Shown here piece after piece: positions 2,329 to 56,013 of a stretch of DNA of 64,000 nucleotides. The DNA lies in NCBI GenBank assembly GCA_951406725.2, contig OX597815.1, positions 38,998,001 to 39,062,000 on the forward strand. The letters are read 5' to 3'. Within the stretch, counting starts at the first letter, position 1. Every line of letters starts with the position of its first letter. This DNA comes from Octopus vulgaris. Its lineage: Eukaryota. Position numbers and translations under genes: made by a program. Below the pieces are notes generated by a model. It searched no databases. It saw only the letters and a program-made list of their open reading frames with translations, and was not told the origin of the DNA.

Positions 2329-4043
2329 TCTCTTATTATAAAAGGCAGATTTTATCTGCCTCCCTTTGTCTTTTATAGAAATCGACAATATAGGATTTCT
2401 TCAATTACAATTTACCTAGCATTTTTAAGAGTAGAATAAATCGGGTCGTGCCAGGTCCGGTTTTTAAAATTTCAACCCCAATTAAGCAAAATTTTGAGAA
2501 AACTCACATTGTGGTGTGTAAGTCAAGTGCTTTTCTTAGTGTGGGCTACAGCACACGCACACACACACACACAAAAACGGAGCGATCTGCTTCACTCACG
2601 CTATCACCCTAATTTCTACTCCTTTCTCTTTGCAAGTGTGCAACGATTAAAGTGAAACTATTTCTATAAAACGAGAGAAGTGTACCTTAAACCACTACTA
2701 AAAAAAAACACAGCAAACAGAAACAAATAAATACATAACGATTTACTCCTCACACAATTTCTTCAATTAGAGTTTACCTATGATTTTTCAAAGTACTTCC
2801 ATTCGGTCATGCCATACAAAATTTCTTTCAATTTCACCCCCAATTAAGACAAAATTCGAGAAAACTCAATATTTTAACATTTCACTCCGAAAGCATTGAT
2901 GTACATGTGTGCGTGCGTGAGTGTGTGTGTGTGTGTGTTTGATGGGATGTGCGACACAGAAAGTGTGGTGTGTAAGTGAAGTGCTTTTGTTAGTGTGTGT
3001 AAAGAGACAGAGAGAGTACACATACCTACGTTCACCTAAAGCACGCACACACACACACACACAAGCGGAGCGCGAACTTCAAAAGAAATTCGCGTGCTAT
3101 CTATCTGGTTTGCCATTCCTCACACACACGCATACACATACATATATGACAGTGACAAACACAAACGTTTCAAACAACTACATACAAACACGTGTGTGTT
3201 TGTTATTAGTAAAAAAGGCGCCAAACACAACTCACTTCTCATTCGAACACATTTGCAAAAACACACCGACGGTCGGATTGCCATAACAATACAGAAAAGG
3301 TAAATTGGTTTTTAATTTACTTTCTGTCGTTAAATTTTGGTAGTATTAATTGGCGAGCCGAGCTTCTTTCAGTATATATTTATACATACATAAATATATA
3401 CACATATTCTGTATATATTTTATTATATAATAATATATATAGATATATGTATATATAATTGCAGAATGAAACAGTGTTTATGTATAAACAGACGACACTT
3501 ATATATAGTTATTAATAAATGTATGCATCCGTTTAAAAGAAAAACCAAAAAATATTTTATTCTTTATAAATGTTGTGTTCAAAATAACATTTTCTTTTAA
3601 GAATGTGTATATAACAAAGTATGTGTATATAACTACGTGGCTTATATCTTTATATATAAAAGTGAAGTTGTGTGTCTGTCTCCTACGATTTGGATTCGTA
3701 ACTACTCCCACATTTTGCGGTGCAGTTTAACCAAAAGCGGGTATCTTATAGTCGTGATTCATATCGAGCCCTTCTGGGTATTAGCGCGCGTCTACGATGA
3801 GTCTACGATTTTAAAAAAATTTACCATCATATTTTTCCATTTTAATGTATTTTTTCGCTATTATATAAGGGAAGTAACTCTCTAAAAATATCTACGATGT
3901 GTCAACGATTTAAAAAAAAAATTTACCTTAATTTTTTTTCCATTTTTAATGCATTTTTTGCTATTTTTTGGCTATAACTCTCTAAAAATGCTTATATATT
4001 TATTTCCCTTACAAACCCGAGCAACGCCGGGCGATACTGCTAG
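2329..4043 (+). mobile_element. Non-autonomous Helitron-like element 1
   Basis: 5' A|TC start (TCTCTTATTATAAAAGGCAG). 3' GC-rich hairpin CCCGAGCAACGCCGGG followed by CTAG|T. No TSD. Confidence 0.75.
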
Positions 4044-7794: not shown

Positions 7795-10700
7795 GTTTTC
7801 TTCATTAACCACTTAGGGTTAGCAAAAAACATTAGGGACGGTACAGGACAATACAATGTGGGGTTACATAAAATGAAACGGGTAAAAAGTGAAAACGATA
7901 ATAAATTTTAATAACGAAATATTCTCCAAAAGAAGGAGGCTTCCTAGGGTTTCGGGGTGGGGGGCACAAAGCCACGGTCACCCTGACAACTAGGATAAGT
8001 GCCTTATCTGTATCGTCCTCCTTCAACTTGCAAACGCATGCTTAAAGTTCGCTCGGGCCATTCTTGCAACATTCACCCACATTTTAGCAAAATTACTGGG
8101 AAGCAACACTTCCTCTCTACCCTCCTTTCCAAGTAAAACTTGAAAAAGTTAATGCAGGCTTGGCTAAAGAGGAAAGTATCTGTCTTCAAGCCCTTTCTGT
8201 CTGGTCCACCACACAACCTCTTTCGATAAGGCCACTAGGCAAAAAACACTGCCTGCCCTTCCCGGTCAAAGAAAGGCGGCAGGACGATCTTCAAAATGGA
8301 TTCAGCCGACAGCCGGATCTGTCCTACACATCACAGCAGGTGTTTGATATAAATCCACAAGTCAGCAATGGGCCTGAGTATGCAAAATAGTTTCGTCGCT
8401 CTGCGCGCATCTGGCGGAAGCCTGGCTGACGGCATTTCAATGTCTGTAGAATTTATCCCAAATCGGCAATGCCTCCTGATAGCACTGCCAGACCAACGAT
8501 TTCTGGAAATTATCCATGGGCTCCGACACGAAAGTCCTCTGAATCAGACAGACAGCTAATTCTCATAGATGCTGAGAGTCTTCCTGAGAACGTCGTCGCA
8601 TTTGCCCACCACTAACCCTCTATAGAATACCAAAGTTGGACTGCCACCGACCGCATTGCCCGGCTGACTGAGGATTGTGAGCGCCTGATGGCTCTTTAGT
8701 GCCACGCACCATGCTTCAGTCTACGCTTGGTCCAGATCTGCAGCTCAGTTAAAGAGGTGAGCTGTGGAAAACCCTGTCTGCCAAACGGCGACTATACCTA
8801 CTCAGCGTTAAGGAAGTACTGGATATGTCGTAGCTTCAGTGCATGTCTGCGCATCGGCGTTCAAGGTATGCCCAGCCCTTCGTTTAGCAGGTGTTGACAG
8901 CAACTGGAGTGACTGGCCAGTGGAACGCGTCTCTTCCACAAAAAGCAGAAGTGTGTGCGCTCCAGTTTGGTCAGATGTGAACTGGGCCAGGCGGTAATAT
9001 ATAATGGAGGCGATCTAAGCATTCGCCACTTCTGTCCGACTTTTCAGGGTTAGCTTTCTTTCGGCCTATTTCTGGGTGATATTGGCTATCCTGCTCGTCA
9101 CCTCGTCCCATTTCTTCTCTACCTGGAGATCTGGACCAAACCAGACTCCAAGCAATTTAACCGGCCTTTCTGTCCAGCGTCCTACGATATTATTGGACGG
9201 CGTGGACCTGCCTCTCCAGATGCCGAGCTGCAAGCCCACTGACTTTTCTTGGTTAATTCTTGCTTCTGTCACCGCTGCGCATTCTTTTAGAGAAGTGTCG
9301 ATCAGGTCTATGTGCCTGGTGTTCGACACAATGATGATGTTTGCGTATGCCGAGACTGTTCTCCAACATCCTAGTCTGCGCGGGATACCTCTCAACACCT
9401 CCAATTTCCGCAGTAATGGCTCAAGAGCCAGTACATACAGAAGAGACGAGAGGAGACACCCCTGATGGACCAAATGCGTGATGCTGAATGGTTCCGATAG
9501 GGAACCATTCATTCGAACTACAGAGCAAATATCAGTGGATATTGCAGCGATCCAACCATAGAAAACAAGACCGAAGTCGGCCGCAAAGTATTGTTTTCGA
9601 CTCCATTGAAGGCTTTAGATTGACCAAAATTAATCAGGGCTCCACTAACGCCAGCTTCTGTACTCCTCCTCTCAATGATGTATCGCGTGAGGTGGAGGTT
9701 GTCGTGGATGGATCTGCTTGGAAAAGCGCATGTTTGCGTATCACGAATCAATTCCTCGACGACAACCGTCAACCACTTTGCTAATACTTTGACCATCATT
9801 TAGAAATCTGCGTTCAGCAGCGTTATGCACCTAAAACTTTCTATTGATCACCCCCACCCACCCTGTTAGGGCTTTTTTCTCAGCAGTTCCACCGCTCCCC
9901 GACTCATAGGACTAGGAATGCTCCTGTTCTGCTGCCAGTTGCGGTAGATATCTGCTAAGAAACCGCCAAAAATGTCTGGCGTATAAAAGTAAAGCTAATA
10001 GGGCAGGCTATCTAAGATACGCGATTCCATCGCCAATCGTCGTGCAGCTCCTCATCGCATCTCGTACTTCCACGTTTGTTAATGATATTTTGTAACGTTC
10101 TTCTCCTCTTGCCGTGAGTCATGGAATACAGTCGAGGTAGGCACTTAAGTTCATCCTGCGTTCCGGAATGCCATTTGTCCCAAATAGCTGGGCCAAGTGC
10201 CACTGAAATGCCGTACACATCTGCTCGAGCTCGAGTACTGTGCGACCATTTCGATCCACCAAAGATCAAATTCTGGCTTTTCTTTTGCCACGTTGCGCCT
10301 CTTCCACTCGGGGCCATCGAGCGGCTTTCGTTCCCTCGGTTTTTAGAGCACACACCTTAGCTCTAACAAGCCATTTATGTTCTGTATAGCCAACGATTTT
10401 GAAAAGAGGATAAGTTAGGGTTGAAGAATTGGTCCAGGACCAATCTCGCCGCCGGCACGTCAGCTGCGATGCCTTTCCTATGAGACTCTTCTAAGTTTCT
10501 ATCTAAGTTTTCCTCTATTCTATTTCTTTCTATTGCTAATGCCGTACTAAGCCGAATCGATTCTACTATAATTGTCCTTTTCAGGTTAAAACACCATTTG
10601 TTGTTGACCACTGACCCCGTCAACGCCCGTTTAACATCTTCGCTAATCTGGTCTCCGTAAGCTAGGCACGCCAGGAGTGACGCGTTCAGCTTCCAGTAAC

Positions 10701-19116: not shown

Positions 19117-22095
19117 AGCCAAATCGACTTACTAGCCAAATCGACTACATCCTTGCCAGAAAAAGGGAAAGATGGCTGCTTATAAATGCCAAAACCTTCC
19201 CAGGCGAAGAATGTACCCCACAACATAGACTGGTAGTTAGTGACTTTAGGATCAGGGCTAAGAGGACGACTAGAAGACAACCAACATGGAGAAGAAGGGT
19301 CTGGAAGCTTAAAGACCCTGCAAATGGACAGAGATTTAGAGACATGTTACTTGAAGCCTTCGACGAAATAGAAGTGGGTATAGCTACACATGGGGTAGAA
19401 GATAACTGGACGCTTCTAAGGGACAACCTGCTGAAAGTCACTGACCAGATCTGTGGCTGGTGCAAAGTCCCCTCAAGACCCAAAATAACGTGGCGGTGGA
19501 ACTATATTGTTGACAGGGCTATTAGACAAAAGAAACAGGCTTGGAAGGACTGGAAGAACGGTGGTAGCAGGGAAGTGTATCAGACTGCCAGAAGGGAAGC
19601 TAGGAGGCAGGTGTATTTAGCCAGAGGGGAAGCAAATAAGAAAAAATTTGCCAATGTTCTGCACCGTGAGGATGAAAGACTTGAGGTATTTCGTATTGCA
19701 AGACAGTGTGTGAGAGAAAATTGTGACATGGTAGGAGAGAAATGTGTTCGCAAGGATGATGGCTCACTTGCGCTAAATGAGGATGCAAAGAGAGAGGTTT
19801 GGAGACGCCACTATGAAAGGTTGCTGAATGAGGAAAATGAATGGGATAAAGAGAGTTTGCCGAATGTCAACCCAACAGAGGGACCAGCAATCCGAGTTGA
19901 CAGTTCCTTAGTAGTTAAGGCAATTACAAGCATGAAAACAGGGAAAGCCCCAGGCCCATCAGGAATTATTGCAGAGATGCTCAAAATATCTGGTAGTATT
20001 GGCTATGGCCTAGTCACCCGTATAGTTAACCAGGTGATACACGAAGGAGTCATACCCAATGACTGGTGTAGCAGTACAATAGTCAACTGCTACAAAGGTA
20101 AAGGTGACACTCTAGATACAAATAACTACAGGGGTATCAAGCTGCTGGATCAGGTAATGAAGGTCACGGAGAGGGTTATAGCCCAACTAATTAGAGAGAG
20201 AGTTAGCTTAGATGAGATGCAGTTTGGGTTCGTGCCAGGGAAAAGTACTACTGATGCTATATTCCTGGTAAGACAGCTGCAGGAGAAATACCTAGCCAAA
20301 GACAAGCCCCTGTACCTGGCTTTTGTTGATATGGAGAAAGCCTTCGACAGGGTCCCCCGATTCCTTATCTGGTGGTCAATGAGGAAACTAGGGATAGATG
20401 AATGGTTAGTGAGAGCTGTGCAAGCCATGTACAGAGACGCTGCTAGTAAAGTGAGGGTTGGCAACGAGTACAGTGAAGAATTCCGGGTAGAAGTTGGGGT
20501 TTACCAAGGTTCAGTCCTCAGTCCCCTCCTATTTATCATAGTCCTCCAGGCAATAACGAAGGAATTCAAGACAGGATGCCCCTGGGAGCTCCTCTATGCT
20601 GATGACCTTGCTCTAATTGCTGAGTCTCTATCAGAACTGGAGGAGAAGTTTCAGGTGTGGAAGCAAGGTTTAGAATCGAAGGGCCTTAGAATCAACCTAG
20701 CCAAAACCAAAGTCCTAATAAGTAGGAAAGTAGACCAATCACAAACGCCTTCAGGTAGATGGCTCTGCTCGATCTGTAAAAAAGGCGTAGGTAGAAACTC
20801 TATAAGGTGCACCAAGTGTAAGCTATGGACACATAAGAGGTGTAGTAATGTCAAAGGAAGACTAACTAGGAAAATAGTTTTTATCTGTGGCAGATGCTCA
20901 GGAGCAATAAACTCTGAAAATATGCAGAGACCAACTTCTACCACATTCCAGGGAGAAAAACTAGAAGTAGTTGATAGCTTCCGCTACCTAGGTGACCAAG
21001 TCAGTAGCGGGGGTGGGTGTGCTGAAAGTGTAACTGCTAGAATAAGAATAGCCTGGGCAAAGTTTAGAGAGCTCTTACCCCTGCTGGTGACAAAAGGCCT
21101 CTCGCTCAGAGTAAAAGGCAGGCTGTATGATGCATGTGTATGTACAGCCATGCTACATGGGCTGTGACTGCTGAGAATATGCGTAAGCTCGCAAGAAATG
21201 AAGCCAGTATGCTCCGATGGATGTGTAATATCAGTGTTCATAATCGACAGAGTGTAAGTACCTTGAGAGAAAAGTTGGACCTAAGAAGCATCAGTTGTGG
21301 TGTGCAAGAGAGACGTTTGCGCTGGTATGGTCATGTGATGAGAATGGCTGAAGATAGTTGTGTGCGAAAGTGCCACACCCTAGCAGTTGAGGGAACCTGT
21401 GGAAGAGGTAGACCCAGGAAAACCTGGGACGAGGTGGTGAAGCACGACCTTTGAACTTTAGGTCTCACCAAGGAAATGACTAGAGACCGAGACCTATGGA
21501 AGTATGCTGTGCGTGAGAAGACCCAGCAAGACCAGTGAGAACATAACCTGTGGCCTACATACCTTTTCTTCTTGGGACACAAAACTCCACTTGTGAAGAC
21601 CCGTTGAGATAAGTGAAAATCAAATCAAATCAAAATCAAAATCAAAATGAAACCAAATCAAATCAGATATCAGAAAGCAGAACCAAAATCGAAGTCGATC
21701 AACATCAATGGAAATTGCAGCTGTGGTTAAGCGAACCATCCGATTGTGGCCGTTGCCAGCACCGCCCTGACTGGCCTCCGTGCCGGTGGCACGTAAAAGC
21801 ACCATCCGTTCGTGTCCGTTGTCAGCCTTGCCTGGCCCCCTTGCCAGTGGCACGTAAAAGCACCATCCGTTCATGGCCGTTTGCCAGCTCCGTCTGGCAC
21901 CTGTGTGGGTGGCACGTAAAAAGCACCCACTTCACTCACGGAGTGGTTGGCATTAGGAAGGGCATCCAGCCGTAGAAACACTGCCAGATCAGACTGGGCC
22001 TGATGCAGCCTTCTGGCTTCACAGGCCCCAGTTGAACCGTCCAACCCATGCTAGCATGGAAAGCGGACGCTAAATGATGATGATGATGATGATGA
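19117..22095 (+). mobile_element. 5'-truncated RTE-clade LINE with near-intact RT, repeat-rich 3'UTR and (ATG)n tail
   Basis: Endonuclease end (SQIDYIL...QHRLVV), 607-aa ORF, frameshift at ~21160, premature TGA at 21452. 3'UTR has GGCACGTAAAAGCACC repeats and an (ATG)n tail. Confidence 0.95.
19344..21167 (+). CDS. RTE-clade reverse transcriptase ORF (partial) with an embedded C4HC3 PHD-type finger
   Basis: KAPGPSG, NYRGIKLL, QFGF, AFVDMEKAFD, QGSVLSPLLF, YADD (20595-20606), FRYLG. Finger CxxC..CxxC..HxxC..CxxC at ~20765-20897. Confidence 0.9.
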   Translation: MLLEAFDEIEVGIATHGVEDNWTLLRDNLLKVTDQICGWCKVPSRPKITWRWNYIVDRAIRQKKQAWKDWKNGGSREVYQTARREARRQVYLARGEANKKKFANVLHREDERLEVFRIARQCVRENCDMVGEKCVRKDDGSLALNEDAKREVWRRHYERLLNEENEWDKESLPNVNPTEGPAIRVDSSLVVKAITSMKTGKAPGPSGIIAEMLKISGSIGYGLVTRIVNQVIHEGVIPNDWCSSTIVNCYKGKGDTLDTNNYRGIKLLDQVMKVTERVIAQLIRERVSLDEMQFGFVPGKSTTDAIFLVRQLQEKYLAKDKPLYLAFVDMEKAFDRVPRFLIWWSMRKLGIDEWLVRAVQAMYRDAASKVRVGNEYSEEFRVEVGVYQGSVLSPLLFIIVLQAITKEFKTGCPWELLYADDLALIAESLSELEEKFQVWKQGLESKGLRINLAKTKVLISRKVDQSQTPSGRWLCSICKKGVGRNSIRCTKCKLWTHKRCSNVKGRLTRKIVFICGRCSGAINSENMQRPTSTTFQGEKLEVVDSFRYLGDQVSSGGGCAESVTARIRIAWAKFRELLPLLVTKGLSLRVKGRLYDACVCTAMLHGL

Positions 22096-42045: not shown

Positions 42046-42981
42046 ATAAATCAGTTAACATCATGAATTCAATAACTACCACCCATGTTTTTCATTCCAT
42101 TAAGTCCAACTTCCAGAGCATTACTAAGGCCTCACAAAGTCAAAGAATCTACTGAATCTAGTTTGGATGTCTAGTTAACACCCAAATTATGTTGAAATAG
42201 GCTTAAAACTGGTGATAATATAACTTAAGCTCCCTATTTTAAATGAACAGCGCTCTCTTAACTATTCATGTGCCACCAAAATAGCTTCTACAGACACTTG
42301 ACCAAGTAAAAGTAGCAGATGAAATCTCCCACATAACACACTCTTTAAAAAAAAGAACACTTGATTTTCAATTTGCTTAACCAGGGTTAAGTTATTCAAC
42401 TTAACACGTAAGTCTTAATTTCTTTTACCAAAATTTATATTTTTGTTTTGTAATATTTGGAAATATCTGCGTCTTCTTTACAACCATTCAATACTACAAA
42501 CTACACATTTCAACTATTGTGGTTTAGTCAACTCAAAATACACAGTGTTTCATCATAACCTATACAAACTCTTTGTATTAATGATAGTATGGTGATTGTC
42601 TGCATTACAACACCCTAACCACTCGTCCATATGCCCTTTTGATATAAGAACATACAATTTAAAAGGAAAAAAAATCACAAGCCAGATTGGTAAACCCCAC
42701 AGGATTTTGTTTTATGTTGAAATAATAGGTAAGAGACTGGCTAGGGGCACCTTCATTGTAGGTTGATGATAAACTCTTAGCTGTGTTTGCAATGAAGTTT
42801 CAATTTCCGGCTGAGCCATTTCACCCAATTCCTTGTACCTTTCTAGTTGAGAGGATCCCTTTCAATCACAATACTTGCTTCACATTCCTTGGGGGTCAAA
42901 AAATTAAATGACTTAACACATGAATCCCAACATATAAAATACAATAAAGAAAACAAAAACAAGTGTATGTGAACAAAACAA

Positions 42982-42987
42982 TTTATT
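42982..42987 (-). terminator. Candidate poly(A) signal of the minus-strand (MYPT) transcript
   Basis: AATAAA on the minus strand followed by a GU/U-rich tract (TTGTTTTGTT...TTGTTTTTGTTTTC). Repeat density drops just upstream. Confidence 0.5.
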
Positions 42988-44455
42988 CATCACTAAAATT
43001 ATATTTCTACTAATATTCTACAGTTTTACAGTATAAGGAGATTGACATTGGCTTCAGAAAACAATGCCTCAAGTAACATGCGTGCACTTTTTTTTTTTTT
43101 CATATGGGTGTAGAATGTCATAGTTACAGAGTAGTCATAGCACTGGTGCTCTTCCTGCCATTGCCAACTAATCAGCTGACAAAAGATAACTAAATGTAGA
43201 AGAAATTATGCAAAGACATCAACAAAATTGATTTAGCAATAGTGAAAATGATTTACATGGGGTATTAAAAAAAAAAAAGAAAAACTTTCAAAAACTAATA
43301 ATAAAGTACCAGTTTTTCCATAATTTGTATTGTTGTCAAAGGCAAGAATAAAAAATATACTGTACAGAAAATGAGAGAATAATTCTATGTGGCCACTGAA
43401 GTGATATTACTTCAAACAGAGCCCTACAACTGAACTATACCCAATATACTAATGATTTTGATTTTTTTTTTATTTACTCATTGCTCATCTAATTTACAAA
43501 TAGAAATACGAAATTAAGATTTAAAAAAATATGCCTTTACCTATCATACACTTTCTTTTTATTAAGTTTCCTTTATTTTATATAATTTCTGATGAGTTTG
43601 TTTCTTCTGGAAATTAGATATTAGTTTAAACTGTAGTCCAGTAGCTTAGCCTCAATATCTATTAATAAATTAAGTATAGAGGTGTGTGTGTGTGTACAAA
43701 ATGTATACAGAGCTCCTATCAATTGAGAATTCTTTTAGTGACAATAATTTACTTAATAGTTAGTCTTCAAGTTTTCATGTTCAAATACTATAAAACTGAA
43801 ATTATTGAAAATTCAAAAACTTCATTCGAGAATAGAATATTCCTTTTGGTTTCATATCGAAAGCAGATTCAACTAGTTCAAGCAGGTTGAAGTCAACAGC
43901 AGCGAGACTGAAGTAAACAATTTGGGAATGTTTTCGCTGGTTTTAAATTTTAGTTCAGCACTGGATTGAAAGTAAATTCAAAGAAGTTGTCAATATCTGA
44001 TGGCAATGTACTTATTGAGAGGATAAATAAGTAATATAGAGTACAGCCTGGAGACATATAAAATAGCTTATATTATTATTATTTATCATTTTAGTAGTGG
44101 GAGAGTTTACATGTTAAGACTGACTGGAATAATAAATTTAAGAAAAATCAGCTGATGTGATTGTGGTAAAGCTGTTTGTTAAAAAAACTCAAGCATATCT
44201 TCTAATCATTTGAAAAGAGCTTTTCTTCAATTGAGTTTCACAACAATTCCAGGTTGGTCCCTTTACAGCAAAACTGACATTGAGGTAGGTACACACACAC
44301 ACACAATATTTTCAAAAATACCTATACTTTTCGTTTTAAATAAATCTGAAAATGTTAGCTTCAATGTAGATTTTTAACGAGGTTATCGTGATGATTTAAA
44401 GCAAAAGCTAAACAAAATAAATGAAGATGTTAAAGAGAAGCAAAACTGTGCAAAA

Positions 44456-44479
44456 CTTAGATCCAACATGTCACCTAAG
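44456..44479 (-). promoter_or_regulatory. Conserved stem-loop copy 1 (CUUAGGU-GACAUGUUGG-AUCUAAG)
   Basis: 7-bp stem with one G-U pair; loop identical to copies 2 and 3. Confidence 0.7.
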
Positions 44480-45334
44480 AAAGCATTACCTGAGCTGCAG
44501 TGTTAATAGCTAAAAGCAGTAGATACCAGGTGTTTTGGTTTCTACATATCTAAAAAAGAAATCATGGACAAAGTCAATAAGTTATTTCACTTATCTAAAG
44601 CTTTTAGCAACAGTTCAGCGCAGAATAAGCCTTTTGTGCACAGAAACTTGACATTAACATATCCATATCACAAGACAAATTTCCCTATAATGAAATATAA
44701 CTAAATATCTTACTTTATCATATTTTTCATACAACTGCTACAACACCCAATGATTAGATATATAGGTAAATACCTTACTTGAGTTATCTTACCTTAATGT
44801 TAAAATCAGACATGAGTTGCTAGTTTAGAGCTCTGTTTTGAGAGGAGTAATGAAGCAAACTGTGGACAAATATTTGAAGTGAAGATGTGTGACTTTATCA
44901 GACTTGGTTCTGTGAGAAAGAGTGTTGGATATGTGTACATTTTTATATACAGGGTCTACACACATGCTGACCCATTATACAAATATGTGCACAAATACAA
45001 CAACCCTCATAGTGTTCGTAAGGTTTCTGAATGTTTAACTCTAATACTGTCTCCCTGAAACTTTACAGGAAGATAATGAACAAACTGCAAAATACTTTCC
45101 ACAATAAGGCACAACTTCTGTCTTTTTTGCAAACAGAAGCAAGAAATCAAGCAACACTTGTGTTATTGAAGAAAACATATTGAAATATATAGGCATAAAT
45201 TAAGAGACCATCTATTTGTACATGATTGAAAATATTAAAAAAATAACCTCAATAGTTTTGTTCAGGCACATCACTCGAGATGTTGGATTTCTTGCTTGGC
45301 TGCGAGCAAGACGCTTTGTCATTAGTATACAGCC

Positions 45335-45358
45335 CTAAGGTCCAACATGTCACCTTAG
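45335..45358 (-). promoter_or_regulatory. Conserved stem-loop copy 2 (CUAAGGU-GACAUGUUGG-ACCUUAG)
   Basis: Perfect 7-bp stem with an identical loop. Confidence 0.7.
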
Positions 45359-45548
45359 ATTGTCAACACACAAGACAGGTGAGGCAGAGTTCCTTATTGT
45401 GACTGATTACAGTAAGGAGCCATGACTCAAAATATCATGTGAATGTACAGAGAATGTATACTAACAAGAAATGGTATTCACTAAAGTGAAAATGGCTGAT
45501 TGACACAAAATCTTACTGCAGAAAAATTACAACTCTTTCTCTCTCTCT

Positions 45549-45600
<52 letters not shown>

Positions 45601-45753
45601 AGACAAAATAAAAGAATTTTTTTTAAAAATGTTTCCAGCAGTAAGAGAGAATACTGTGTGTAAATTAGCCATTTACACCTTGTGAGGACAAACAGAACTC
45701 CTGCAAATGACCATCATAGGGGAGGTCACTAATATGAAGAGCATTATGCAAAC

Positions 45754-45777
45754 CTCTGATCCAACATGTCACCAGAG
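45754..45777 (-). promoter_or_regulatory. Conserved stem-loop copy 3 (CUCUGGU-GACAUGUUGG-AUCAGAG)
   Basis: 7-bp stem with one G-U pair and an identical loop. Confidence 0.7.
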
Positions 45778-46257
45778 AAACAGGTGACCAGTAAAATGTC
45801 AAAAATAAAGCCTTGAACAACCTTAGACAAGTTGCCAAAGTTTATGTTGGACAAATTATGATCTAACCATGATGAATGCAATATGCCTTGGTACTAACGA
45901 TCTCTCAACTACAATAGTACATCAGCAGGTTTCCTGAAAGATACCGATTATCAAAAACAGAAAAACATGACAACTTTAAATTACTTTTTTATTTGGTTTT
46001 TAAAGTTCTGAGTATTCTGTTGATGGTAATTATTACAGCTACATATTGTCGTCAGAAAATGCATTTTAATTCAGATGTATTACGAGAAACAATCAGAAAC
46101 CATTTGAATATAACTGATTTTTTTTCTTTTTTTCAATTGAAAAGGAAAACAAACAAATGAGATCAAGAAGTTGATGAGTAGACAAACACATTTGATAAGC
46201 ATAAGGGGTGAGGAACACAGCAACATAATAAATTAGACCCCATAGAAAAATGTACAA

Positions 46258-46284
46258 TATTTACACAGCAATCCAATATTTACA
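46258..46284 (-). promoter_or_regulatory. Tandem Pumilio-response elements (UGUAAAUA x2)
   Basis: TATTTACA at 46258-46265 and 46277-46284 on +, matching UGUAHAUA on the minus transcript. Confidence 0.45.
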
Positions 46285-48849
46285 GAGGTGCCTATATATA
46301 TATATACATATATATACATATATATATATATAATTTAAATAGGTGTTTCAGCAATGTTGAAAAATTAACATTACTGCTCAGTTATCTTGCAGAACGAAGT
46401 CATCACACATCTAAACATCTAAATATTCCCAAGAATTACTACATTACTTGAGTTCCCTACATAGAATATCACGGAATGGCCAGCAAGAATATAACAACCA
46501 TGTGCTTAATCTCACACACGCACACACAAACATATTATATATATATTTAGTATAAATACAATTTATTGCATATTCTATAGTAAGAATAATAATTCTTTAG
46601 AAAACAACACAACTTCAATGAAGTTCCTGTACTTTTCCAGCTATATTGAACAAAGTATTCTAGCTGAAAGATTTTGTAGAAGAGACAATCGTTAATACAT
46701 AAAATTTTTTTGCTATAATTAATTTGAAGTTGCACTTTGAAGGAGGAGGAGAATCCCACAAGAAAAACATTGCTTTTTAAAATCAATCAAATTTCAAATT
46801 ATAAGCAAAAATACTCAAATGAGAGACTACTACTTACAGGCTCACACACACACAAACACACACATTCAACCACATCGTTCCTTTGTAGAATAACCACAAA
46901 CTAATACAACTAGTACTTTGTTTATAGTATAATTCAACACAGGGTTGTTTGTGGCATATTATTTTGTAAACACGTGAATCTATTTTAAATTTAAGGCAAG
47001 TCAAAAAGATTTGAAGCTCAATGATGAGAAACATAATTAACAAGGCAAGTCTCCAAATGAGATTAAAATAAATGTGTGTGTGTGTGTGTGTGCATGGACA
47101 TATGCACACATAAACACACACGAATGTATATATACACTGTCAATTACTCTGAATAACTGTGTACCAAAGTGTGTGTGTATGCATGTGTGTGGAGTATGTG
47201 GCAAAAATAAGGTTTGTTAATTTCCCTATTTTGCAGGTGACAGACCAGGGATTGCCAGTCATTTTCATACTATCTACAAAAATAGAATCTATTCCAATTT
47301 TGGTTATTTACACTTTGATCTGTGCAGCAAACAGTTTAACAGTAAAAAATATTACAGCATAAAGATTACTTTATTTTGCTTATTTTTTATATATTCAAGT
47401 TACTATGCACATACATTTCGATTTTGTATGGATTAATCTTTCTCTCACACACACATACAGAAACCAAACAAGCTTTAGAATCTACTTACACACCAATTCA
47501 TATTCATACACACAATGTATACAATATGTGTCTCAATCCCATTTTGTGGCATTTTGGGCAAGAGTCTTTTACTTGATTCAAGTTGACTCAAACTAAGTGG
47601 AATTGAGTTGGAAAGTGTGGAAGCTTGTTGTATGGACTGTACTTATAATTAAAAAAAAAGGCCAGCCTTGTCTCACACTGATTCTGCCTGAGGATCATTA
47701 CCTCAAAAGGTGCGTCTGTGGCAAACCCAAGCATTCACACCCTAATTCAATGAGGAGGTGGCTCAGTTAATCAAACACCCACAATACTTTCGTCAAAATC
47801 AACAGAGGCCCATATACTCTTTCATATATAAGAATTGTCTAAGCAACAACAACCGGAAGATTATGGAAAAACTGGTAAGTCAGGATAGCACCATTGTGAT
47901 TGGCCCACCTCGAAGTTTCATTATGTACACTAGGTGTCAGAGTTTGAAAAACAAAACAAAAAAAATAAGAGACTTTAAAAAATGGCAAAAGAATTTAAAA
48001 AAAAAAAAAAAGAACCAACATGCGAGATGATACAATCTAGATGTGACAATCGAGAATTGAGTAACCTGAGAGAAGGATACTTTTAACAAAATTTAAGATG
48101 CAATTTTTTTACACATTTGCATGCACACACTGCGGTTTAACCTTTAGCCAACCTGCTAACTTGGACTGCAGCTATACATACACAATAAGAAACAGAAAGA
48201 GAGAGGTAAAGGAAGGGAGGGAGAAAGAGATAGAAAAGGAAAACAGAAAAGTGTAAGAGCATCCTACAATAAAAAAAAAAATAGTTATATTGATTACGTA
48301 ATATATAAGTTGATTGAGATATTACTGGTAATCATTTAATCAAACCCCTAGAAGAATGAAAAGCAAAGTTAACCTTGATAGGTTTGGAACTGAGAATATG
48401 AAGATCAAAACTAAATACCTTAAGACTTTGTGCGACACTAATATTTTGACCCAAAGTATCATAATAATAATAATATTGCTTCTTTCACTCAGGACTCAGC
48501 CTGTCAATTTAATTATCAGTGAGTGGTTGTTAGAACTCAAAACAGATACCAATCTAAAGAATGTCCTTGTGTTATGGAATGACTGTGAAGGCCTTGACCA
48601 GTTTCCAAGGATAAAGGAGTACTACTGAAGAAGTGAAAGAAAACCAACTATCTGTAGCAGTGCTGCAAAATTTGGATTCATCTGGTAAGATCATACCTAC
48701 ACCAATATCCTGATATTAATCCACCACATGGCATCGATACAACATGTGTTCCAACTATCTCCATTCAAAAACATTGTATGGTATCAGATGGTTTTCTTTT
48801 AAAAACAAAAGAACTTGTATAAGAATGATGAATCTGGCAATCTCATTCA

Positions 48850-50270
48850 TTTTCACTCATTAAAACATGGGAGATGCTTGAGACATATTACCCACAATTT
48901 ATTGGCTGAAAATGGCAGAACTGTCAGGAGGTGCTCTGGTGTTAGAGCTGCAATTCACCATCCATAGAATAGAGAGTACAGGAATGACAACTCTTTGCAC
49001 AATCAAAGAAACAAAATCATCCAGTGTTACCTTGAAAGGAATTTGAAGAACTTTCCCAGCCGAAACTGCCAATGTTAAAAGGAGTGCTACAGAAGAGTAA
49101 GGTAGGTCCTGGAAAGTGAGCTCCAAGAATTGCATAGAAGGTATTAAAAGTTTAGCAGTACCTGTTGTATAATATGGTTTCAATGTCATCAACTGAAACC
49201 TAAGAATGAAGACAAAAACCAAAAAACATATAACTACCAATAAAATGTACCATCCAAAGATAGATATAGACCGCCTCTACCTGTCAAGGAAAGAAGGTAG
49301 AAGAGAGCTAAGGCTGGGCTGCAGAAGTACTTAAGCAAGACCAATGACTGGATGATGATATGAGTGAGAGTACATGAAACCCAGAAGATGCTTCATTCAG
49401 TGAACAAAGAAGCTCAGAAATAGAGTAGAGATACACACTGCAAAAATAGAAATGGCTAACGAAGCTGACCAAATGCCAAAAAAGATAGTCAAAATGCATA
49501 GGATGAAAGCAAAAACAGAAAGACTTAAAATTTTGAAAATAGATGGCAGCTGAAGCCTCTCTATGGCTTATACCCACTCCATACCTAGGAAGCTAATGTA
49601 AACCAATCAAAAACCTATCAGTGGCTGCAGAGTTCAGGGTTGAAGCCAGAGGGATTCATTCTTTCTCCCTATAAACTATGAATTATCAAACCAACATCAA
49701 AAATGGAGCAGACCCTCATGTGCAGAGTCAGTAATGCCCATGACAAAACAATTGACTATAGTGTAGCTGGATGCCTAATGCTGGCTCCAATCAAATATAA
49801 AACCAGACATGACACAGATGGCCCAATACATTCACTGGAACTGAATATGCGTAAAGCTGGTCTGAACACTAAACCAGTAGTAGAAAGTAATGATATTACC
49901 ATCGCTAGGGACTTAGCAGTATATAGTGATTGCAAAATTAATGCCAACCACCCAGACATTATTGTTAAAGACGTCCGGAACAAGACCTGCCTACTATATA
50001 TATATATATGACAATACCATTTGTTAAAAAATGTACTTACCAAGGAATATGATAAACTTGCCTGGTATAAAGACCTTGAAATTGAAACAAGCAGGATGTA
50101 ATAGCTGAAGACAGAAACAATACCAGTTGTGACTGACTAGTTTCTTTATGACCCTTAGTGCTCCAATGATATCCTTGTAAAAATACCAGAAAAACCTAGC
50201 ATATATGATATCCAGAAAATAGTACTAAATAATACAGGTCACACTCAACATAAGTTCTTGTCTTTGTAAT
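48850..50270 (+). mobile_element. Degenerate R4/Dong-like non-LTR retrotransposon 3' part (restriction-like endonuclease)
   Basis: HPKIDIDRLYLSRKEG, decayed CCHC MCRV...TIDYSVAGCLMLA...YKTRHD, NHPDIIVKD, YKDLEIE and ETIPVV. Confidence 0.8.
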
Positions 50271-52836
50271 CTATATTCTCAAAACTTTTTTTTTTCTTAT
50301 TAAAACCAAGAATGAAAACCAACAAGAGTGGAGCTACTTGAACAATTACATTACTCTACAATGCGTACTCTAGGAGATTGGCTGTCGTTTGGTAGGCATT
50401 TGATATCTCACCAGCATCAAATAAAATAAGTACTAAATAGAAAACAGAAATTCTAAACAAATTTTCTTTTGAGAAAATGAAAGAAAATTTGATGTATATA
50501 TATATATATATATGCATGAGAGACATGCTTGTTCCTGCAAGTGCATGAAGCCAAAGGAAGATATCAATTCTGCTAAGTTTCCATACTGTCTAAACTTTTT
50601 GGCATAATGTCTACATTCTTCAGTAGATTAATGAAGAGGTGAGGAATAAGGCCACAACACCAGAATGTAGAGTACTGTGTTGGTTTTCTGGTTCCCTACA
50701 CACACTAATGTGTGTGTGTGTGAGAGAGAGAGAGCTGACTGCTCATTTGCACAAGTGTGAATTAAGCATTTTTTAAATATTTGTATAAAGAATACATACT
50801 TGCTGTGTGTGTGTGTATTAAAAATACTAAAATGATTTTTTTAAAACAGGAAAAAATATTGCTGAGTAGGAGAAAGATAACAAAAAAAAAAAAAGAAAGA
50901 AATAGCCTTAATTTCTTATTATAAAAACACAACCTATAAGTACCACAATTTAAGAGAGAAATTCAGTATATTCTAAACCTGGTCATGAAATATGATTGTC
51001 AACTACTTCCTTATAATAATGAAATTATTGTATACAGTGCTCAGGTGCACCACAACTTGTCAGAGTATATGCAGTAATGTACAAACGTCTTTCTTTTGCT
51101 TCAGTAACATTCACACAATGATTCCTACTAAATACAAAGAAAATGAATTTACAGAAAATTAAAATGTGAGGTCATAAAAGAAAAACATTTGGTATTCTTT
51201 AAACAAGATTAAAAGTCTAAAATTAGTCAAAAACTATATAAAGAATTAATATAGATTTTTCCCCTCTACCATCTAAATATTCTAGGAGTAAATTTAAGCC
51301 TAATACCAAGCTGTATATGTGTATGTGCAGATTATATACATTTTACACACACATAAATACAGACAGAAGTGAAGTACATTCTGAAATGAAAAAAGTAGGC
51401 TTGAACTAAAAGACAAATATAAATTTTTTCTCTTATTATTTCACATCGTATCAAATTGATCTTTAAAAAGTTGGAATTGCCTTTCCTTCAAATTATTTCA
51501 AAATAAAACATTCTAGCTGATAAGAAATTTAAAAAAGAAAACAAAAAAAAAGTTTTCCCTGTATTAGTTCCAAAAAGTTGGCAAGCTACATGCTTTCCAT
51601 CATTTTCACTCAATATCTAAGAAGAAAAATTAACAACAATAAAAGGATCAGACATGAAAATCTATGCCTTTTATTTTGGGATGTTGGGTTTGATAAAATA
51701 ATTCACTGCAGATAGTTTACAATTATATGAACATAATTAAGAATCAAATGAAGAGGTTTCAGAAACAAAAATTGATAGCATGTCCAAGAATGATAGCAAG
51801 CTCTATTTACATCACAATGGACATTATAGAAGATGGCCTAAGACTTTATACTTCTAACTCTTCATATTGCATAGGTAGTAGGTCCCACCTTTCACAACAG
51901 AAGAATCAATATGAGGAATGGAGTGGAATAATAACAGTAATAATAACCAACAAGTGTTATAGTGATGAATAAAATAGAGAAGATGATAAAAGTATTAAAA
52001 CAAATTTTAAAAAATCAAAAATAAGACAGTTATTAATAGGAAAAAACAAATGGACAGCAGAAAGAATATAGAGTGGAATAGAGTAAATGGACAGTTCATA
52101 GCTCCTTCATCAATTATTATTTCTGCCTGTGTGAAACAACACACCACATTTACTCGACACTAAAATTCGCAGAATATGAGGAAAACGAAAGAATAAAAGA
52201 GAAAAAGGAGAGAGGAGAGGGACAGAGAGAGAAAGGTATATTGAAGCAAAAAAAAAAAAAAAAAACAGGTGTCAAATGTGCAATAATACTTAAAGAAACA
52301 GTAAAAGGTTATATAAAATGGTTTACAATTTTGGAGGCAGCTTTCAGGAGATATGAAAAGAACTCATTCCTCAATATAAGCTAGACAAACATCACCTTCA
52401 AAACTATAGTTTAAGTTGATCTTTAACCATTACTTATATCTACATAGTTGTGTATGCTGGCATGCAAATAGGTACTCAACAAGAGCCAAGCAGCTGCAAC
52501 AAGGTTGGCATGGCGGTTATATGCAAGAACTGTAGTTTGGAAGACAAGAACAGAATCAGATTTCAACTGAACTTCCAGTGTAAGCAGAAAGTTTAAATTT
52601 TGACGTAACTGTGTGGAGTTGGGGGAACCTGGCTATGATGTACATGGTGATGATAATGAGCATGATGATGATGAAGATGATGATGATGGAGTAATGAAAA
52701 GGAAAAAAAGATGAATTAAAGTAATGGGAGAAATTGTAGTAAGTAAACAGAGAAGTGGGAGGAGAACAAGAACGAGAAGAGGCATAAGTAATATGTGTGT
52801 GTATGTGTATAAAATGTAATAATAAAGCAGTTCTGA

Positions 52837-52923
52837 CTACTTAGAGAGTTTGCTGACCACTCTTATTAAAGCTCCATTCTCTTCTTTCAGTCGTGCATTT
52901 ATAGATCGCAAGTTGTCCATTTC
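52837..52923 (-). CDS. PPP1R12A: Terminal coding exon of a myosin phosphatase targeting subunit (MYPT1/Mbs; PPP1R12A/B/C family), leucine zipper
   Basis: TTTTCATTTTTGCAG| then EMDNLRSINARLKEENGALIRVVSKLSK*, matching the family C-terminus (RLKDENGALIRVISKLSK). Upstream exons were not found in the window. The exact paralogue name is nominal. Confidence 0.92.
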   Translation of the reverse strand, partial: EMDNLRSINARLKEENGALIRVVSKLSK

Positions 52924-55828
52924 CTGCAAAAATGAAAATACATACAATAAGTAAAGCAAAACTCCATGATTAAAAGTAAGAATGATAAAACCCAACAATT
53001 TAAATTGTCCTCAATTTTGAAATCTTCCTATGGTACAAAATATATGAAAGCATAAATAAATAATAATAAAAAGTAAGCAACAAAAATTTCGGGTGATGAA
53101 CAACTGGAAAAATTCAATAAATGTTGGAATACATTGTTTCTGAATACAAAGCAGAAGATGCTTCAAATATATTCAATCTTAACAGCCAGAAATTATTACA
53201 ACAAGGATTAATGCATGAAGACACATTGTATAATACACATCCTCAGTAGTTTTTTTTTTTTTTTTTAATTTACATTAGCCACAAAAAGCTAGAAGTTCAG
53301 AAGGGAGAACCAGTGATAACAACATAACATCTAACAGCATATAACTACATGTTAAACCTCTTAAACTATAAAACAATGCCAACACTAAATGAAACTGAGG
53401 GTTGTACATTTCTCACTAAGCCTAACTTGATTTCTTGAAATGCTTCGGAGAATTCTACATGATAAATTTCCATTAAATTCAATAGCATTATGAAAACTAC
53501 CAAAGTTTCTGGAAATACTAAGGGCCATTGTAATGTTATGTTACGTTGTTATAGATTATACAACTAATAAATGGGTTAAGTCAAAAACAGAAGTCAGTTC
53601 ATTCATACTTAGTGACACAAGGTAACTTTAATTAAGGACTAACTTTACTGTTATGTAATTCACTTCAGAAGGAAGAAATGCTAGGCAGGATCTAACGATG
53701 CTTTGCTTTACCATACTAAATGCCGTAAAGCATGTACTCCAGCTATGCGTAACTGCACTGCTTAAAGTCAACCAACAATAGTAAGTAGCAAAGTACAACA
53801 TAAGTTTGTAACATTAGTCCCCATGTGAAAAGGGTAGCGCTGAAGTCCAGCTTCATAAAGAATATATAGCACAAGTTGGCTGGGCAGAATCCATTCTTCT
53901 CTAAATAATGTCCACATGAGAAGCTGAACTCAGTACTGAAAACTAACAAAACATTCAAAAATGTAGTCCCTGTTTGTTTGTTAGGTAGACTGATCCATTT
54001 GAGAATTACTAACCATAGCTAAGGACACAATGCAGTACTACTGTTAAGACAGGAATCACCTAATTGACTGGCTATGAAATTAGTGAACCATGCTCTGAAA
54101 GTGCATTAAAGATATACAGTTTTAGGGAAAATAACATATGCTTGAGGATTTAATTAAGAGACTAAAAATAATATTGTAGAAATAATTAAAAAATTTAAAT
54201 GGAAGTGTTCTAAAATTTCATTTTATATTTTTTCTTTTGTTTTTCTTTTTAATCAACAATAAATGGCATTTAATGATGGGTTCGGCAGTTGTATTAAGGA
54301 ATGTCTACAAGTTTCTGATGTGGATGATAGGTTGAAGAGATACTGTCATTAGGTTATAGTGAAGTTGAGAAGTTTGTTAGGCTAATAGAATAATAGAAAT
54401 ACTAGCATTAGATAGTATGTTGTTGCTTTGGTGACTGAACCCCACTACAGATGACACTGGATGAAAGAGATGTATTGTTAGGAGTTAAAAGCTAATATCA
54501 CAACTAATGGGAAACATTCTGATTGTTACAGACTGAAGAAAATAGCGACAGAAACAACATCTAGTTAGTTAGTTAGTTAGTCAAGATGAATTTCTGTTTC
54601 AGCTATGAGAACATAAAGAGTTCAAGTAAGAACAAAACATTCATGAAAGAGAAAGAGAGAATATTGATGGGGGGGGGGGATAAGATATAGACAGAAGAGA
54701 GAGTGGTAGCTGAGATAAAGAATGCAAGGGTATAGTAATTAAAATCAAAAATAGAAAAAGAAAATATGGTGCTTACATATGACCCAGTTTAAATAAACTG
54801 TAACCGTGTTGAATATATTTCATATTAATGATAGAGTTAAGTGAAGAGAATAAGAATAGGTTATTGTTGAAACAGACTGTATGATATAAAATTACTAATA
54901 AATGGCTTCAAGTGTTGTTGTTCGCTATTATTAATTAACAAAAATGAGAGAGAAGCTAAGAATAGAAATGAAGGATATAAAAACAAAAAATAAAGCCGTA
55001 ATAATTTATTCAACAAAAGGAGAAACAAAATAGAAATAATGATAATTATTGTTTGCCAGCAAAATTGTTAATAAAATTAGTTATTCTTTTACTTTAAGTG
55101 AAGAATCTTTTCTTCCACTCCTTCATGGTTTTCAGCAATTGCATTGTGGACCATCCTAGAACAACTGCATTCAAGAGATAGTTAATTGTATTTACCCCAG
55201 CTCATGATAAATAATTATATTATTGGTTTCAATATTTTGGGACAAGACCAATAAGTTCGAGGGAGCGGGTAAATCGATTACAATGAGTGCAGTGCTTAAC
55301 TGGTACAAAAGGATGAGAGGTAAAGCCAACCTCAGCAGAATTTTAACTCAGAATGTGAAGAAGGATGAAATGCCACTAAGCATATGGCTCAGCATGCAAG
55401 CAATTATGCCAGCTCGCCACTTTACTTATATCATTGACTTCAGGAATATGAAAACATATTCAACTAGGGTGGGATTTGAACTTAAACTGTGACGGGAGGC
55501 AACAAGAATGATTCAATTATATAACTTGTTAAACAAAGTAAGCTACAGAGAATTACTTACAGTAACAAAACATCTTAACATGGTTCATAAAGGTATGTAA
55601 TAGCATTGGTCATTAATTAATGTCTTAATGCTCCACAGTTTGAAGCATTTTTCAATAAAATCTTCTTATACATTTTCTAATCCATAGATTAATTTCAAAT
55701 ACTCATTTACTTTTATGCTGATAGTGATAACTTTCAGCAGTGATGACCCTTTTGTTTCATTAGGGCTAAAGTAAACTACACAGGTGCTGGTACCACAATA
55801 AAATGCACCAAATACACTCTTAAGTGGC

Positions 55829-56013
55829 TGCAAAACAAGTAGAGAAATACACTCAATAGAAATGGCTAACGAAGCAGAAACTTTTTTTTTTAATTTTCCA
55901 GATTTTAAGTCTTTCTGTTTTTGCTTTCATCCATGCATTTTGGGTATCGTTTTTGGCATTTGGTCAGCTTCATTAGCCATTTCTATTGAGTGTATTTCTC
56001 TACTTGTTTTGCA
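55829..56013. repeat. Inverted repeat (~47-bp arms) built from an inverted copy of 49425-49539
   Basis: Arms ~55829-55876 and ~55967-56013. 55895-56003 is a close reverse complement of 49425-49539. Confidence 0.8.

Follow-up and report, generated by a model that had tools for sequence, protein, structure and literature searches.

Three stem-loops on the minus strand of a 64,000-nt stretch of octopus DNA (the window, meaning the whole stretch analyzed here) are members of a conserved, strongly covarying RNA hairpin family that is apparently uncatalogued. The strong support for this motif comes from copies outside octopus and not from the three octopus copies. The host gene of the octopus hairpins is PPP1R12A/MYPT1, and we somewhat favor the reading in which the inferred distal MYPT1 3'UTR would offer them as repeated docking sites to a single sequence-specific RNA-binding protein or RNA-modifying enzyme. 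To our knowledge, few small RNA hairpins keep one loop across distant animals, namely, the IRE, SECIS, the histone stem-loop, and the Smaug site. The very clean covariation, the simple 31-nt definition, and the lack of an Rfam entry mean that the ligand of this family can be fished directly.

Covariation within the hairpin family

The window contains exactly three occurrences of the 14-mer TCCAACATGTCACC, starting on the plus strand at positions 44462, 45341, and 45760. Read on the minus strand, each occurrence forms a stem closing the loop GACAUGUUGG, written with its closing pair as U-GACAUGUUGG-A. Copy 1, the most 3' of the three (44451..44481), pairs 44479-44473 with 44462-44456 around a loop at 44472-44463 and has the 3' tail UUUUG; it scores 51.0 bits with covariance model R2, whose training set includes it. 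Copy 2 (45330..45360, minus strand; 40.8 bits) has the stem CUAAGGU/ACCUUAG, the same loop, and the tail GGCUG, and copy 3, the most 5' (45749..45779, minus strand; 46.1 bits), has the stem CUCUGGU/AUCAGAG, again the same loop, and the tail GUUUG. The first-pass annotation had described three covarying minus-strand stem-loops with the outer stems CUUAG/CUAAG, CUAAG/CUUAG, and CUCUG/CAGAG, exactly as found here. Its uniform 7-bp stem holds for copy 1, but copies 2 and 3 form eight pairs; likewise, the minus-strand G-U wobble that it saw is present in copies 1 and 3, while copy 2 has G-C.

Outside the 14-mer, the octopus copies also agree in the outer C-G and U-A pairs and in the 3' tail. Within 44401-45800, words of up to 14 nt recur three times, compared with at most 10 nt in all 300 Markov controls. 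A high-copy transposon fragment, named in the first-pass annotation among the findings that would overturn its reading, is not what the genome holds: TCCAACATGTCACC stands at background frequency (15 occurrences genome-wide versus 11 for the reversed control), the other 12 octopus occurrences all have stems of only 1 to 3 pairs, and the interval 44300-45520 is single-copy. Pattern and consensus-pattern searches of the octopus genome found no other intact hairpin among the matches listed (all 40 exact matches and 60 of the 1,120 one-mismatch matches were read); these searches are not exhaustive, and patterns with D ends skip some sites. Within the window, covariance model R1 returned nothing beyond the three copies better than E = 0.08. 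A tandem satellite at G000:C18:56595914-56597229 repeats the 13-base core many times in stemless form.

Covariation among the three octopus copies alone is suggestive only, with two pairs double-changed and one changed on a single side, a modest result matched by 22 of 500 shuffles. Their folding z-scores (-0.56, -1.62, and -0.89) are unremarkable. The word CACCUG, earlier noted 5' of each copy, does precede the octopus stems but at unequal distances (1, 15, and 45 nt), and it accompanies none of the 28 non-octopus copies. The proposal that it pairs with GGUG in an alternative fold thus fails as a general feature of the family, though the CACC/GGUG alternative, and not the hairpin, is the predicted minimum-energy fold of a 46-nt piece around copy 3.

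A scan of metagenome contigs for the motif yielded 70 loci. Nine of these contain 2 to 5 copies, always on the same strand within a locus, and merge into six sequences (L042, L043/L045, L050/L051, L053, L067, and L071/L097). Another 35 lack a core of at least 5/6 pairs, and 26 have one such core; from the latter only L089, L092, and L102 were used, each with one full copy and mutually homologous in syntenic blocks, the other tested ones scoring at most 30.5 bits. With L045 dropped as a duplicate of L043, the L050 copies dropped as duplicates of those in L051, and 58 loci left unused, alignment A2 comprises 31 gapless copies from 11 sequences, octopus included. Every core match in the 11 sequences falls among these 31 copies.

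Conservation of both loop and pairing elsewhere, on which the first-pass annotation had made its interpretation depend, was found in these metagenome copies. Across A2 the helix of columns 11-18 and 29-36 is paired in 238 of 248 stem cells (96%), with double changes in seven of the eight pairs (59 cells), and the 13 copies lying outside the search pattern keep 87 of 91 pairs. Four covariation measures (score, pair types, cell count, and paired fraction) were reached by none of 500 shuffles, and a fifth was not exceptional (matched by 60 of 500); the shuffles take no account of relatedness, and the stems had been seen before the 11 sequences were selected. Slid registers pair at 57% at most. 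Ranked by MI-APC, the first seven column pairs coincide with the seven stem pairs that vary, and RNAalifold returned the same 8-pair helix unprompted. G-U pairs fill 30 cells and A-C only 1, a strand asymmetry. Two other geometries were rejected: in every one of the 31 copies the open loop is favored by about 2 to 8 kcal/mol over an internal cap helix with a GA bulge, and a shifted K-loop register is ruled out by the covariation at columns 17-30.

The resulting motif is defined over 31 nt, with a stem of 7 to 8 bp of free sequence, the loop consensus GACAUGUYGG (cap U-GACAUGUYGG-A), and the 3' tail YUUG. Columns 18-25 and 27-29 (U18-U25 and G27-A29), or 11 of the 12 loop and closing bases, are invariant; at column 26, 27 of the 31 copies have U, 3 have C, and 1 has A. 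The scan fixed the loop, so its invariance across species is partly built in, and only the extra within-locus copies are unbiased in this respect. Unpaired flanking bases are also kept (G40 in 30/31, U39 in 27/31, and U10 in 25/31), and none of the 17 flank pairs tested provided a convincing pairing partner (lowest P value, 0.025 uncorrected), which points to base-specific reading.

Composition and repeats suggest that the outside sequences are eukaryotic and probably animal. They look non-coding throughout the available DNA (four of the longer frames were scanned, with no Pfam match), and the hairpin strand is the U-rich strand. Spacing between clustered copies is irregular (136 to 1,204 nt). 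Relatives apart, the clusters have nothing but the hairpin in common, and no second motif common to them was found. Among the relatives, L071 and L097 are 78.6% identical overall, with both hairpins and tails identical, and the hairpins of the syntenic L089 and L102 differ by a U-A to C-G change; orthologous hairpin copies are better kept than their flanks. Further syntenic non-coding blocks at L089:82-118, 1204-1338, and 1900-2110, with matching blocks in L102, are in some cases hairpin-like with variable loops, possibly parts of a larger structured UTR or ncRNA. ARAGORN found no tRNA genes in 10 loci. Three scans of viral contigs gave 13, 5, and 0 matches; the 13 have stems of 3 to 6 pairs and only 60-nt flanks, too short to reveal clusters, and the 5 score at most 20.6 bits.

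Possible reading of the loop by protein or by RNA

Recognition by a protein or enzyme is favored because a fixed-length stem of free sequence, a near-invariant cap, and kept single-stranded flanks occur together. As in the class of protein-binding 3'UTR hairpins, the stem is kept by compensatory change and the loop by sequence. The stem would then be a mere scaffold, with the loop and flanks read base by base, and 2 to 5 spaced copies could exert additive control of stability, translation, or localization, in the manner of the transferrin receptor IREs or the MAT2A hairpins; the irregular spacing fits independent additive sites. The cap contains the words UGAC, UGGA, and GAC. UGAC and UGGA are short words reported for FMRP-family proteins in PMC5001617, where kissing complexes were not enriched, and GAC is given as a Bicc1 word in 10.1101/2022.07.22.501140. 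These short-word matches make FMRP-family proteins and Bicc1 candidate ligands, as leads only. The word UGACA of the cap also conforms to DRACH, the m6A consensus. The Bicc1 site of Xenopus Cripto-1, as described in 10.1101/2022.07.22.501140, is likewise bipartite, with a free stem, a specific loop, and a single-stranded flank; in this comparison by description, however, the key Cripto-1 flank is 5' and holds the GAC, whereas in the present family the GAC lies in the loop and the best-kept flank is 3'.

The closest likeness in architecture is to the MAT2A hairpins bound by METTL16, where, according to PMC9286414, six hairpins lie in one 3'UTR with a fixed loop word and both structure and sequence are needed. 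Copy number is comparable here, with three hairpins in the inferred octopus UTR and 2 to 5 in six outside sequences. The MAT2A loop word in that source is UACAGARAA and not GACAUGUYGG, the octopus-family stem is shorter and of fixed length, and MAT2A codes for a metabolic enzyme, which MYPT1 does not.

The loop may instead be read by RNA. As kissing-loop modules, the hairpins would pair with each other through their palindromic loops, within one mRNA or between mRNAs, and so compact or multimerize them; we consider this reading rather doubtful as a full account. The palindrome ACAUGU, pointed out in the first-pass annotation, is perfect in all 31 copies and extends to GACAUGUY through G-U or G-C, since the sole variable cap base, column 26, is mostly U or C and both pair with G19. 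C26 accompanies C17 in 3 of 7 copies, raising the self-complementarity to 12 nt, versus 0 of 23 copies with G17, a contrast that is partly pattern-biased and possibly drawn from orthologous copies. A precedent for kissing exists in the oskar 3'UTR, which with the HIV-1 DIS also presents a six-base palindrome in a hairpin loop (PMC7357161). The oskar loop is GC-rich, whereas the present one is AU-rich (2/6 G/C) and forms a weaker palindrome in 2 to 5 copies with conserved non-palindromic bases and a tail; its dimerization is putative. The predicted duplexes are weak (-4.6 kcal/mol for ACAUGU and -7.2 kcal/mol for GACAUGUU, compared with -7.9 to -10.9 kcal/mol for three kissing hexamers), and one copy has A26. 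No alternative palindrome closing a comparable stem was found in 10 sequences scanned, hence no loop covariation, within a collection whose scans fixed the loop. Kissing also leaves the invariant G27, G28, and U18-A29 and the conserved tail unexplained. Protein binding and kissing are not mutually exclusive, and a more speculative proposal, to which we give a low probability, combines them: an ancient cross-phylum animal element, comparable in rank to the IRE or the Smaug site and so far overlooked, whose loop would be read by protein and would also pair copy to copy, with arrays of 2 to 5 hairpins switching an mRNA between protein-bound and self-multimerized states and one leucine-zipper myosin-phosphatase isoform as the octopus target.

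A mobile element could have originated or spread the hairpin, which would then be read by the element's own enzyme, the octopus copies being old co-opted or passive relics. Prokaryotic genome contigs gave eight matches, seven of them at 31 bits or less, and a single locus, L112, speaks for such an origin. L112 is a 37%-GC, repeat-rich sequence without bacterial-style genes inside a MAG titled Thiodiazotropha, a clam symbiont genus; it is animal-like and likely host DNA. Its two copies (46.3 and 38.7 bits), absent from the training set, have opposite orientations, each in one unit of a duplicated 157-nt segment (3628-3784 and 9472-9628; 87% identity), with a transposase-like HTH frame nearby, and one copy has the loop change GGA to GAA. 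A repeat that captured a piece of UTR explains L112 equally well, and its segment is unmatched in the octopus genome, which is a weak negative. The single-copy octopus flanks, the same-strand clusters with unrelated flanks and different stems, and the better conservation of orthologous copies than of their flanks make the mobile-element origin unlikely.

The probable MYPT1 host transcript in octopus

PPP1R12A/MYPT1 has alternative last exons, and the coding portion of the distal one lies at 52837..52923 on the minus strand. It encodes a PRKG1-interacting leucine zipper (EMDNLRS...SKLSK plus stop; PF15898, 41.2 bits) that shows complete identity to the C-terminal end of Octopus PPP1R12A isoforms in the annotation, in agreement with the MYPT/PPP1R12 identity proposed for the host from the outset. 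A second leucine-zipper exon lies about 13 kb upstream (L017:1498-1584, minus strand), and the common exon beyond it (L018) is 100% identical to annotated isoforms of Octopus vulgaris and O. sinensis. Annotated isoforms terminate in one or the other zipper. A complete leucine zipper is thus present in each of the two alternative last exons of octopus MYPT1, and the hairpins are located behind the distal one only, 7.1 to 8.4 kb past its stop codon.

The favored arrangement, for octopus only, is one 3'UTR of about 9.9 kb (42988..52836, minus strand; U-A skew, 0.14) holding all three hairpins, which supports the 3'UTR placement made in the first-pass annotation. It is inferred from the contigs of a single sequencing run, X1, whose RNA nature is a guess and whose contigs are strandless, and it is favored because these contigs tile from a spliced exon and their depth climbs stepwise. 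Six records tile 44200-52923. Record 6 follows the genome up to the splice acceptor at 52923 and has another 518 letters past it, and record 1 continues for 1,212 letters beyond 44200, which would place its end near 42988 if colinear. A likely poly(A) signal, AATAAA followed by a U/GU-rich stretch, lies at 42982..42987 (minus strand) beside this end; it is placed from the sequence and the inferred contig end. From copy 1 to the likely poly(A) site is about 1.5 kb. At least 97% of sampled words of 43700-45500 are present in 13 probable-RNA runs from four studies. Contigs from runs X17, X18, and X20, which have other labels, reach or span copies 1 and 2 and differ there in 3 to 9% of letters, and none of the 40 listed differences (of 134) falls inside a hairpin.

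The hairpins might instead belong to a separate ncRNA downstream of MYPT1, serving as a multivalent scaffold or protein decoy. No X1 record joins the stop codon to the hairpins, and none covers the interval in full; depth around the hairpins exceeds that at the exon about 4-fold. The outside loci are all non-coding in the available DNA, and L089 and L102 have several other conserved blocks in common. The interval is, however, covered in 30 of 30 bins of the tiled region (44200-53200; depth 4.45 in a mostly intronic bin and at least 20 in the other 29), the breaks between records fall mostly at simple repeats, and records 3 and 4 overlap. Main-record depth toward the 3' end runs 22, 21, 25, 39, 58, and 87, a stepwise climb as expected from the 3' bias of one poly(A) RNA. 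A separate ncRNA is accordingly judged improbable next to a long MYPT1 3'UTR. Between the distal stop codon and the hairpins lie eight other AATAAA/ATTAAA words, and the rising depth in X1 gives no sign of their heavy use.

Within a MYPT1 3'UTR of this length, an mRNA using the proximal last exon or an upstream poly(A) signal would lack all three sites, and control by the hairpins would be isoform specific. Their position behind one of two leucine-zipper last exons could thereby tie post-transcriptional control to a single isoform of the enzyme responsible for actomyosin relaxation. Should the outside clusters also lie in MYPT UTRs, the hairpins represent an old gene-specific control; if they do not, the hairpins mark a regulon. 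A tblastn search found no MYPT coding match in the available outside-locus DNA, and protein searches meant to link the outside contigs to MYPT gave 0 and 116 matches and no link. Two minor features were observed in this region. Repeat-derived pieces within the inferred 3'UTR lie under X1 contigs at 49400-50140, including a segment resembling 55856-55963 and a LINE-like frame at 49682-50008, and an 8-base complement of the 3' half of the loop, of a size expected by chance, lies at 53120-53128 (minus strand), about 200 nt upstream of the distal splice acceptor.

Comparison with known elements and remaining alternatives

Searches against Rfam 15 found no match in the window at the gathering threshold. 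Of 27 matches at E ≤ 10 in 42900-46200 and 5 matches in 10 outside loci, none lies over a hairpin, which agrees with the initial statement that the element is not an IRE, SECIS, or histone stem-loop. The transferrin receptor mRNA carries five IREs, each with a CAGUGN apical loop and a bulged C five pairs below. The present family resembles them in that several dispersed hairpins keep one loop while their stems are free, but it has neither the CAGUGN loop nor the bulged C, and its 10-nt loop tops an unbroken stem. SECIS elements have a non-canonical UGAN/NGAN quartet, two helices, and an apical AA, whereas covariation here sets a single 8-pair helix. The histone 3' stem-loop consists of a 6-bp stem and a 4-nt loop at the mRNA end; the octopus hairpins have a 10-nt loop and lie 1.5 to 2.8 kb from the inferred end. 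The LARP6-bound collagen 5' stem-loop and the 7SK 3' hairpin each contain a CAUGU-like word, paired within the collagen stem and placed in a five-base loop in 7SK; both geometries are unlike that of the present hairpins, which have no Rfam match to either. A pre-miRNA or tRNA, requiring a stem of about 30 bp or a cloverleaf, was rejected given the 8-pair stem.

No description of the motif was found in searches of open-licence full texts; the large candidate lists of genome-wide screens may contain it without a name. Literature matches to motif strings (all 17 in one search and the 40 listed of 127 in another) were unrelated, as judged from titles and the starts of abstracts. Searches within PMC7941889, PMC6288889, PMC11310781, and 10.64898/2026.10.24.761493 gave no match to the motif.

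The AUG in the loop could itself be the conserved feature, starting small downstream reading frames. It occupies loop positions 4-6 in every copy and begins M-L-D/E or M-S-E. The frames range from 1 to 103 codons, one being a bare AUG-stop, no peptide is conserved past the hairpin, and the wobble positions within the loop never vary, which makes this reading very improbable. Least credible, with hardly any probability left to it, is the notion that the three copies derive from an abundant RTE-type LINE as chance or decayed pieces: a similar stretch does exist on the LINE coding strand, and three of six two-mismatch matches elsewhere are RTE copies, one of them perfect-stemmed, but hairpin-centered windows score only 21 to 26 against the RTE copy in the window (background mean, 24.3; maximum, 32; n = 45), the hairpins show neither the flank homology nor the many genomic copies of an RTE-LINE fragment, and the cross-species covariation contradicts it. 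The RTE-type stretch resembling the motif lies at 21258-21295 of the window (plus strand) and in L024 to L026, and in L024 it has a perfect 7-pair stem with a loop two bases off that of the motif.
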